Shown here in pieces: positions 42,780-46,340 of a stretch of 64,000 nucleotides of DNA. Each line of letters starts with the position of its first letter. Positions within the stretch are counted from its first letter, which is position 1. The stretch comes from a virus. Its lineage: Duplodnaviria > Caudoviricetes. The translations under genes and the position numbers were made by a program. The stretch covers positions 1 to 64,000 of the IMG/VR virus record IMGVR_UViG_3300028805_000096; one strand, given 5' to 3'. The notes under the pieces were generated by a model, which saw only the letters and a list, made by a program, of their open reading frames with translations, had not been told where the DNA came from and did not search any database.

Positions 42780-42852
42780 TGCGAGGAGATGCTTTGGTAT
42801 GCATACGACTCTCATAAGGTCGTCGTTCCTGGTTCGAATCCAGGTCTCGCAA
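42780..42852 (+). tRNA. trnM: tRNA with CAT anticodon (Met, or Ile2)
   Basis: Cloverleaf: acceptor TGCGAGG/TCTCGCA, D stem ATGC/GCAT, anticodon loop CTCATAA, T loop TTCGAAT; no encoded CCA. Confidence 0.88.
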
Positions 42853-43360: not shown

Positions 43361-44938
43361 TTAGTATAACTTAGTTCGGCTTATGTCTGGTTGTACTGCT
43401 TCGTTTTTGAATGGTCTTATTGAACAAGCTCTACTTACGGGGTTATAGCCAGGTTGGTCGGCTCTATTAGCATAAGATTGTTGTCTCGCCGCATTTAATC
43501 AATAAGATAAAGCTAACGCAGTAGATGTCCAAATATATGCTGTGGTATCCCTATTCATAGTGCCTCAGCTTTCTGTAAGTCATCAACATAAAGGTATTTT
43601 AAGATATGAGAGATATTTATCTGCTCAATATCATCATTGTCAGCTACCATTTGCAAAATTCCATAATCACATACTATTTCATAAAGTACCTAGTGCAAGC
43701 ATTTCAGTTCTTGATGGGATATGCCATCATTCAGCACAAGGTCATCTTCTAGCTACTAATGTATCTGTTGTATCCCCCCAGAGATTTACATTTTTGCTGC
43801 TGTCCCAATATGTAGCAGTTATATACGTAGATGAGTTATAATAATTATTAGGTCAGTAGTTTTGTGCATTTACTTGTGTAGGACTTGTAGTGGTAGGTCA
43901 AGTAAACGGAAATCAATAGTTGTTTCATCGCTGGTAAAACTTTCAGCAATTACTTTCGCTCATCGTATCTCAACTAGAATATACAGCTGTTGCTCACAGA
44001 TTTTTATCTGCTATTGTTAGCCAAGTGTTTCAATCACTACTCAGACTTATTAAGTCTTCTGTTTTATTCCAATATATTCAAGCTGTTGTTATAGGTGTTG
44101 CACTAGGTCGTACTTTTGTTTCTCATAGATAGACTGCTTTAGCTGCTCATTCTTCTGTTGTTCATTGGCTTACTCATCATCGGAGATTTCAGTTATCTGT
44201 CGTGTCCCATCTATATGGACTTGATGATACAGTTATAAATGTGTCACTTGAATAATAATTTCAAGGTCAATATACACTAGCATCTACTTTTGTGCTAGAA
44301 GTAGTTACACTTCAAGTTCGTGGAAATCAATAATTATTTCATCGTTGATAATATTTTCAACAGTTTGCTTCTGATAAAGTATCTCAACTATTCCATACTG
44401 TAGTAGCTCATAAGTTTTTATCTGCTATTGTTATCCAAGTCTGTCAGTCACTACTTAATGAAATTAATCACTTTGAGCTATTCCAAAATATTCATCAGCT
44501 TTCTATACTCGTTCAATATAGCTTAGTCCAAGAAGACATAGGCACAACAGGGGAATTCTTGAAACAACGGACAGAGGAACCGTACGTACGGCGGTAGACA
44601 TCCTGAGGATTAAGAGTATCCGAATTGAAGTACAGGTTGTACGCGTAATTAGTATTGCTACGCGAAGAGGACCAATAGTACCCGTAGGAACCCTGACCGT
44701 AAGCACCAGCAGACGAGTTGCTACGGTAACCAGCGAAAGGCAACTTTAATGCTATTCAAAAGTTAGTTCAGTCTGAACTTCATCCACCTAAAGCTGTTCG
44801 GATATTTCTTACAGTTTGCCATTCTGTATTAAGTGGTACGTGGAACCCATCAGGACAAGGTCACTGCATATCACTTATAGTTATACTTCATCAAGCATAC
44901 AGATTTTTTATCTCTTTATCTCATATATAAATACTCAT
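43361..44938 (-). CDS. receptor-binding protein with two Fib_succ_major-like (C-type lectin fold) domains; DGR target
   Basis: GPCPDGFHVP, LPFAGYR, YWSSS, SVRCFK, TIADKNLGA, GKYYQWG. Confidence 0.88.
44569..44740 (-). repeat. DGR-type variable repeat VR-A
   Basis: Aligns to VR-B at offset 910; differences concentrated at codon positions 1-2. Confidence 0.8.
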
Positions 44939-44963
44939 TCTTTTATTTATTAAGAAATAAAGA

Positions 44964-46340
44964 TTAGTCTGTTACAATAGTTATCACATTACTAGATGTT
45001 CAACTAGCTGGTGCTGATGTGGATGTTACTATCTTGTAGAGCTGGTCTCAAACTACTAGGTTTCAAGATACTGTCTGAATTCAAGTTACTCATCACCAAA
45101 GATTTCAATTATCTGTCGTGTCCCATCTTCAATTATATTTTATGAATGTATCACTTGAGTAATAATTTCAAGGTCAATAACTACTTGCATCTACTTGAGT
45201 TGTACTTTGATTTGCTATTGTTCAAGTTCGTGGGAATCAATAATTATTTCATCGTTGATAATATTTTCAACAGTTTGCTTCTGATAATGTATCTCAACTA
45301 TTCCATACTGTTGTGGCTCATAAGTTCTTATCAGCTATTGTTATCCAAGTAGTTCAATCTGAGCTTAATGATATAAGTCAATCTGCAGAACTCCAAAATA
45401 TACCACCTGCTTCTATACTTGTTCAATATAGCTTAGTCCAAGAAGAATTAGGTATAGCTGGGGAATTCCTAAAACAACGTACAGATAAACCGCGCGCACG
45501 GGTGTCGCTATCCTGAGGACGAAGAGCAGTCGAAACGAGGAGCAGTTTGTACGCGCTATAACTATAGTAACGCGAAGAGGACCAATAGTACCCGGTGGAA
45601 CCATGTTCGCTAACACTAGCATCGCCGTAATTACGGTAACCAGCGAAAGGCAGCTTTAATGCTATTCAAAAGTTAGTTCAGTCTGAACTTCATCCACCTA
45701 ATGCTGTCCATACATCATAAACAGCTTGCCATTCAGTTGTTAAAGGTACGTGAAATCCACTAGGTGCAGGTCACTGCATAGCTGTGTAATCTTTTCACTC
45801 ATACGTACCATCCAATCAGATTTCATCATTTGTTATATCTATTCAGTTTCCTGCTGTATAGTTACCACCTGTTTGGATAGTCACATCTCCATACTGTCAG
45901 TTTACACTTGTGACTCAGGTATTTGAAATAGTGTTTCAGTTAATTCAGATTCATGTACCTGGTGTTAGTGTATTTTGTTTTCCCGCTATTGTAGTATCCA
46001 TAGAGCTGATTTTGTCGTAGACAGCGTTTTTACTTGGAGCTTGTGTTGTGTCTCAATTCCATGATGATCCATAAGCTACATCACTTATTATTTGTGGATA
46101 GTCTATATTTACCTCTGTTATGTTTGTTACTTGTCAGAGATTGTTGGTTGTGATTTGTGGAACTTTCTGTCCTGTACCTTTTGCAGTATATGCTGTTTGT
46201 GTATCCAATGTATTTTGTTTTCAGCTTAGGTCTATATTTGCTGTTCCGTTAGACATAACACTAGTTCAGTCGACTTTTACATCTTCTACGGGGAAGTTGT
46301 AATCTGTGTTATTGAATTTAAATTTTTTGAGTCTAGCCAT
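44964..46340 (-). CDS. tail fibre with Fib_succ_major-like domain; DGR target
   Basis: Fibre stalk (APSKNAVYDKI, KQNTL) plus the same lectin-like domain. Confidence 0.88.
45479..45650 (-). repeat. DGR-type variable repeat VR-B
   Basis: Counterpart of VR-A; GC-rich island with mostly A-free invariant codons. Confidence 0.8.

Follow-up and report, generated by a model that had tools for sequence, protein, structure and literature searches.

Orphan CLec2/FISUMP variable repeats of DGR type in a rumen phage with a doubly recoded code

The first 64,000 bases of the 77,336-base IMG/VR virus record IMGVR_UViG_3300028805_000096 (this whole stretch is hereafter the window), which comes from a sheep-rumen phage, hold two neighbouring genes, A and B, each containing a 59-codon patch that resembles the variable repeat (VR) of a diversity-generating retroelement (DGR). 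The record is linear by IMG/VR class, has no terminal repeats and is rated 100% complete by CheckV; public metagenome runs in which it occurs come from sheep, goat and bovine gut or rumen. The genes and their patches, VR-A and VR-B, are arranged as follows.

43361..44938, minus strand: gene A (P0001, 525 aa, 47 TGA codons read as Gly), open under table 25; in order, a FISUMP C-half with VR-A, two N-half modules and a second, ordinary FISUMP C-half
44564-44740, minus strand: VR-A, 59 codons from CCT to TGT, 177 bases; hypervariable codons between 44570 and 44728
44964..46340, minus strand: gene B (P0002, 458 aa, 35 TGA codons read as Gly), open only with TGA as Gly; in order, a fibre-like N-terminus, a FISUMP C-half with VR-B and an N-half module
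45474-45650, minus strand: VR-B in gene B, 59 codons; scaffold as in VR-A, apparently drifting

An open reading frame (ORF) survey of the window showed that long open frames appear only when TGA is a sense codon. TGA accounts for 47 of 525 codons in gene A and 35 of 458 in gene B, which is too many for tryptophan, and table 25 yields sensible proteins; TGA is therefore glycine here, not tryptophan. A second reassignment is supported by alignment. CGA stands opposite TGG between the two paralogues at 44798-44800 versus 45708-45710 (xWTALGG) and at 44180-44182 versus 45096-45098 (NLWGG), and YYQ-CGA-GNNYGF in this phage corresponds to YYQWGNNYGF in relatives. The paralogue and relative alignments thus agree in supporting CGA as a tryptophan codon of the phage. 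CGA and CGG have been reported as Trp codons in Absconditabacterales (PMC13092985).

A sequence-only reading of this DNA had proposed two DGR-diversified repeats at this place, differing at about 40 first- and second-position sites and about 8 third-position sites. Both patches do lie there, on the minus (coding) strand, and the hand count was nearly exact: VR-A and VR-B differ in 46 columns over their 59 codons, distributed 21/18/7 by codon position, i.e., 39 first- or second-position sites against 7 third-position sites. In the 47 flanking codons, genes A and B differ in the proportions 7/4/11 (patch versus flank, Fisher p=0.004). The shared 15-mer core ACGCGAAGAGGACCA occurs exactly twice in the window, as had been stated, with a chance expectation of 0, and the scaffold of the patch consists of the blocks CCTTTCGCTGGT ..., TATTGGTCCTCTTCGCGT ..., TCTGTNCGTTGT.

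The codon usage of the patches is as unusual as their pattern of difference. Adenine occupies 15 of 131 columns that are invariant between VR-A and VR-B, compared with 37 of 119 in the flank; when four copies of the patch are considered (A to D, the latter two described below), the values become 8/117 (6.8%) and 36/112 (32%; p=1e-6). The invariant codons are thus largely A-free, as had been claimed, with few exceptions (TAC, TAT, CAG and GAT). No codon of VR-A ends in A (0/59), and four of VR-B do (GAA, AAA, TTA and GTA; 4/59), whereas A fills 42.5% of the third positions in the ORFs of the record. All 11 glycine codons in the two patches are GGT, GGC or GGG, the six in VR-A being GGT or GGG, and neither TGA nor GGA is used; about 80% of the Gly codons in the record's ORF set are one or the other, and the part of the half-domain adjoining the patch uses TGA freely. 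The sequence-only reading had extended this avoidance of recoded codons to tryptophan. That part is weak: it depends on a single codon, and the flanks likewise write Trp mostly as TGG. Its proposal of adaptation to a doubly recoded code was borne out, in that the A-free codon choice fits a genome in which TGA is Gly and CGA would be Trp.

The patch closes a Fib_succ_major/FISUMP domain, between the motifs LKLPFAG.R and SVRCF. Gene A scores above the cut-offs of both profiles, with 44.3 bits for PF09603 (cut-off 33.9) and 52 bits for TIGR02145 (cut-off 41.65), and its FISUMP match ends on the ...SVRCF motif (residues 127-128), at the last of the 187 profile positions. Gene B stays under the curated FISUMP cut-offs (25.7 and 28.1 bits), yet the region is clearly paralogous to that of gene A. 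An internal control is provided by the other C-half of gene A.

43409..43597, minus strand: second FISUMP C-half of gene A; A fraction 0.32, four TGA Gly codons, not VR-like

Similarly, the FISUMP homologues in the related phages L005, L007, L008 and L009 are ordinary, with an A fraction of ~0.33 and TGA used for Gly. The ordinary C-half together with these ordinary homologues indicates that the fold itself does not force A-free codons.

We identified five further copies of the patch. Copies C (L001) and D (L002) were found in other metagenomes with a scaffold 21-mer, and copies E (L003, record G001), F (L006, record G004) and G (L104, record G009) by protein-guided and pattern scans of IMG/VR, in which the loose scaffold pattern gave mostly chance matches plus one new VR copy (L104). 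All of these copies share the composition of the patches, with A fractions of 0.12-0.18, no TGA and 0-3 A-ending codons. The template inferred from the copies is ~177 nt long with ~60 adenines, and 24 of its 30 hypervariable codons are AAC (14) or AAT (10), in line with the AAC/AAT-type template predicted from the window. In each of six copies, 26-28 of the 30 hypervariable codons are NNY. VR-A agrees with copy D at all 117 non-adenine sites but not at 27 of the 60 sites inferred as template adenines; over copies C and D together, VR-A differs at 0-2 of the 117 sites and at 26-32 of the 60. For A, C and D, which come from three metagenomes, these 26-32 adenine-site differences compare with ~39 expected for independent draws. 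Variation between VR-A and copies C and D is thus confined to possible template-adenine sites, and A is kept at 43-52% of the inferred template-A sites in copies A to D.

A complete DGR in a related code-25 phage, IMGVR_UViG_3300028242_000055 (G004, locus L006), served as a positive control. Its parts are as follows.

L006:9120-9258: control VR, in tail protein P0003 (CLec1-like), matching the template repeat (TR)
L006:9278-9328: GC-rich inverted repeat 3' of the control VR, with 23-nt arms
L006:9585-9723: control TR; every mismatch to the VR (16 of 16) is at a TR adenine, and the VR keeps 18 of the 34 adenines
L006:9916-11130: reverse transcriptase (RT) P0005, with 16 in-frame TGA codons read as Gly

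An 86-aa ORF at L006:9278-9538 is a candidate accessory protein. The control VR has no A-ending codon (0/49) and no TGA, and its adenine retention (53%) is close to that of copies A to D. VR-A displays exactly the signature of this proven VR, whose phage belongs to the same group and shares the code. We are highly confident that the patches were written by DGR-type adenine mutagenesis, and the earlier assignment of DGR-type repeats to a C-type-lectin-like (FISUMP, 'CLec2') scaffold is upheld by the match to the proven L006 VR/TR pair.

The family at large bears on the alternative that no retroelement was involved and that diversifying selection acted on the binding loops of a segment transferred from a standard-code, GC-richer organism. 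Phage receptor-binding proteins are often fast-evolving, and the same scaffold does occur in standard-code proteins. However, among 64 family domains taken from a protein database that writes TGA as W, the ratio G/(G+W) is 0.82 inside the VR and 0.12-0.37 outside, and K, E and M each make up less than 1% of VR residues; AAY-derived codons cannot encode these three. In every family member, the shift in codon usage falls at the edges of the 59-codon patch. The adjoining part of the half-domain in genes A and B uses TGA freely. The NNY pattern across the six copies, the lack of A even at silent positions of invariant sites, and an A retention like that of the proven VR/TR pair are likewise at odds with selection on a transferred segment. 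This account was already disfavoured, and we consider it very unlikely.

Public collections (P0006-P0098) carry the family with TGA translated as W, so that most of its glycines are written W, which probably lowers profile matches and the quality of structure prediction across the family. The structure predicted for the gene A region (alignment A2), with alignment rows from databases reading TGA as W, had a mean pLDDT of 36.8 and was not used, and a PDB sequence search with P0004, the FISUMP protein of G004, gave no match. There are 93 database homologues, many of them on 50-70 kb contigs. Two, P0106 and P0107 (MDR2416010.1 and MDR2415404.1), belong to a Candidatus Peribacter metagenome-assembled genome (MAG) and consist, over 102-114 aa, of little beyond the same VR scaffold (LPFAGYR...GYYWSSSP...GFSVRCFKD). 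Judging from these two proteins, the cassette type appears to be present in cellular relatives within the candidate phyla radiation (CPR) too.

VR-B departs from the pattern set by VR-A. Compared with A, C and D, it shows 7-8 differences at non-adenine sites, for example TCG TCT to GGC GAT, and the confinement of variation to possible template-adenine sites fails for it. These changes, together with its four A-ending codons, mean that one template cannot have recently written both VR-A and VR-B. The suggestion that a single multi-target DGR serves the two repeats is thus contradicted. VR-B looks unmaintained, and would be drifting to the A-rich codon usage of the genome.

We searched for the machinery that could have written the patches. 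The sequence-only reading had found no RT in the window, and none is present in the whole record either: no PF00078 match was obtained at E<=10, and tblastn with P0005 gave nothing better than E=1.3, whereas the same search recovers the RT of G004 at 9.5e-20. Nor does the record contain a TIGR02436 match at E<=10, i.e., an Avd-type accessory protein (a four-helix bundle), although about a quarter of known DGRs are without avd (PMC5758913). Neither blastn nor the core 15-mer revealed a third copy of the patch or a template in the 77,336 bases. The expectation that TR and RT lie elsewhere on the genome is therefore not upheld, since this record, complete by CheckV, has no RT, Avd or template.

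Searches beyond the record were equally negative for a template. A cognate TR is absent from G001 (95% complete), G004 (100%) and G009 (96%), all of which carry the patch, and no FISUMP-type template was found in 80 loci around related RTs. Template-compatible patterns had no match in IMG/VR; strict versions of them had none in GTDB genomes, a search in which host genomes were not scanned with the loose pattern. The sequence-only reading had asked for a search of the contig and the metagenome for an A-rich TR. In metagenomes, the scaffold 21-mer returned just the two further VRs (C and D) and no template, but this 21-mer holds a TAC codon that may be AAC in the template. No DNA match was found among INPHARED phages. 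Papers on phages of CPR bacteria make no mention of DGRs, and our literature searches brought up no case of a host template serving a VR in a phage. One locus, L010, was considered as a candidate template because its match is limited to the VR part, and was rejected as an ordinary standard-code 155-aa protein with a FISUMP-like end. A 1.75-kb Logan contig that aligned solely over 44550-44740 seemed template-like; judging from a joint to 44245, it probably comes from a further fibre gene, one whose domains stand in the canonical order.

A template and RT that belong to the phage would have escaped these searches if the contig were incomplete or a chimera of two related phages. The record is indeed linear and without terminal repeats, and in G004 the DGR cassette lies directly downstream of the orthologous FISUMP gene. 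Against a missing cassette stand the CheckV completeness and the genes that follow gene A on its 3' side, namely a small membrane-protein gene and a tRNA, with no DGR cassette. Moreover, even the G004 template does not match the FISUMP repeat of G004. We regard a cassette lost from the record as highly improbable.

The region next to VR-A is where a homing signal would be expected.

44515..44563, minus strand: 3' flank of VR-A (TTC AAG AAT TCC CCT ... TGG ACT AAG CTA TAT TGA), almost unchanged between A, C and D, with invariant adenines

Only 6-nt palindromes occur 3' of VR-A and VR-B, whereas the proven L006 VR has its inverted repeat with 23-nt arms. We found no GC-rich hairpin 3' of VR-A, VR-B or copy F, and not every DGR has been shown to need one.

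Several observations, among them the drift of VR-B and the missing hairpin, suggest that the patches are static. In the lineage of copy F (P0039 and P0113-P0115 versus P0004), five variants of the protein, recorded on at least 11 contigs, differ at some dozen residues of the N-half but not at all in the patch; the phage of this lineage carries a DGR for another gene. In the source sample, the contigs that cover VR-A and VR-B agree with the reference at every base and are as deep as the flanks, although contigs hide rare variants, which makes this weak evidence. Other contigs of the same sample, at depth 10-28, carry different VR versions. Contigs of the source-sample runs break at the edges of the paralogous repeats (44348-44354, 44752-44768, 45321 and 45683), and several joints link positions in genes A and B; assemblies of the gene A/B locus may thus be error-prone.

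From these data, VR-A and VR-B would be finished products of a DGR, orphaned, not rewritable by this phage and now fixed, with VR-B decaying; we judge this to be an even call. A number of points weigh against it. Contig-only data (Logan) cannot show rare variants, the 21-mer with its TAC codon may have missed a template in the metagenomes, and the GTDB search relied on strict patterns, leaving host genomes outside the loose one. The family has diverged and yet retained the A-free scaffold. Of the silent sites in this scaffold, 3 of 29 vary, compared with 33 of 86 in the wider flanks (p=0.005). The immediate flanks are conserved too (8 of 35), and the contrast is significant against the wider flanks only, which makes it a weaker argument for special conservation of the scaffold. 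Finally, the immediate flanks of VR-A and copy D differ by ~6% (counted from the alignment) while none of the 117 non-adenine sites does; at least one of VR-A and copy D must therefore have been rewritten from the same template after their split. Writing after the split would call for many independent losses of the element, and a source in trans is simpler.

Such a source would be a DGR on the chromosome of an Absconditabacterales host, or on a co-resident mobile element, that still rewrites VR-A during infection, with a second template needed for VR-B. Consistent with this, a cognate TR is missing from all four near-complete phage genomes that bear the VR, yet their scaffolds hold only 0-4 A-ending codons in 59; the scaffolds of A, C and D are identical while their adenine sites are near-saturated (26-32/60 versus ~39 expected); and the Peribacter MAG shows that cellular CPR genomes hold the same scaffold in short proteins. 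Avd, TR and RT are moreover able to act from a plasmid (as cited in PMC5758913). On the other hand, no TR-compatible pattern was matched in GTDB genomes, the VR of the F lineage is frozen, the source sample looks clonal, the repeat has no hairpin on its 3' side, and one template cannot serve both VR-A and VR-B. Targets of phage-associated DGRs are also expected to lie within the phage (PMC5758913). Live diversification in trans is, in our view, rather unlikely. We are similarly doubtful of the broader proposition that a host- or resident-element DGR rewrites the fibre tips of Absconditabacterales rumen phages, a whole receptor-binding family thereby borrowing a hypermutation machine. If true, a shared trans template would explain the identical scaffolds in diverged phages of different samples.

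We conclude that both patches are variable repeats written by a DGR, that they belong to the known CLec2/FISUMP class, and that they are orphans in this doubly recoded phage of the rumen. When they were written and where the template lies we infer as follows, keeping to the reading of finished, orphaned products. An RNA template of ~177 nt with ~60 adenines would have been reverse-transcribed with errors at adenines, and the cDNA would have replaced the tip of the FISUMP lectin-like domain in a receptor-binding fibre. Template and RT would lie, or have lain, outside this genome, and VR-A may share its template sequence with copies C and D of other rumen samples. The VR-bearing half-domain could then have spread among fibre genes by module shuffling. 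Both patches would now be fixed alleles in the phage population, with VR-B presumably drifting to A-rich codon usage.

The architecture of the two genes is itself rearranged. The N-half module is present in three copies (43866-44080, 44280-44494 and 45190-45404), and in genes A and B the C-half with the VR precedes the N-half. In the related P0004 (L006:7235-8047), the N-half comes first and the C-half second, as is canonical, and the VR closes the protein. The reversed order in genes A and B looks like the result of half-domain shuffling or circular permutation. Their neighbours match tail, minor-tail, tail-fibre and head-tail adaptor PHROGs, and this gene context suggests that A and B are fibre-like genes at the end of the tail module. 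The sole tRNA detected in the window is a tRNA-Met (CAT) at 42780-42852. No suppressor or recoding tRNA was seen there, and the phage presumably leaves the decoding of TGA as Gly and CGA as Trp to its host.

Against a genomic background with TGA or GGA for most glycines and A as the last base of 42% of codons, a DGR patch stands out sharply. The exclusion of TGA from the patch offers a direct view of codon choice constrained by adenine mutagenesis, and the contrast provides a simple rule by which recoded phages can be screened for patches of this kind, even with protein collections where TGA is rendered as W. Several near-complete phages with the patch and without the template make a concrete system in which diversification in trans can be set against the circulation of finished, written tips as modules.

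Fib_succ_major/FISUMP and DUF1566 proteins are a known DGR target class, 'category d', with CLec2 repeats (PMC5758913; PMC4159848). This class (DUF1566, DUF823, Fib_succ_major) includes Legionella pneumophila LdtA (Wu et al. 2018, PMC5758913; Ye 2014, PMC4159848), and the patches described here share with it a VR at the C-terminal end of a Fib_succ_major/DUF1566-type domain, richness in AAY and an invariant scaffold (LPFAG.R ... YWSS ... SVRCF). They differ in that TR, RT and Avd are absent from the genome, in that the repeat lies mid-protein, as the C-half precedes the N-half, and in their carrier, which is a phage with TGA as Gly and apparently CGA as Trp rather than a cellular lipoprotein gene. 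The closest comparison is the DGR of G004, from the same phage group and with the same code and VR compositional signature, where the ortholog P0004 lies directly upstream of the cassette. However, the G004 template targets P0003 and not the FISUMP repeat, and the G004 VR has a GC-rich hairpin that VR-A and VR-B lack. As in the DGR of Bordetella phage BPP-1 (mtd VR, avd, TR, brt), the tip of a phage receptor-binding protein is diversified at template adenines. BPP-1 has all parts beside the target, with a defined initiation of mutagenic homing (IMH) site and hairpin, whereas only targets are present here; its avd, TR and brt also work when a plasmid supplies them in trans (as cited in PMC5758913). 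Like the Treponema denticola TvpA family (Wu et al. 2018), the system has several targets far from RT and TR. Such remote targets are not expected for phage DGRs (PMC5758913), and TvpA targets and template share one chromosome, whereas in this phage the template is absent from the whole replicon.

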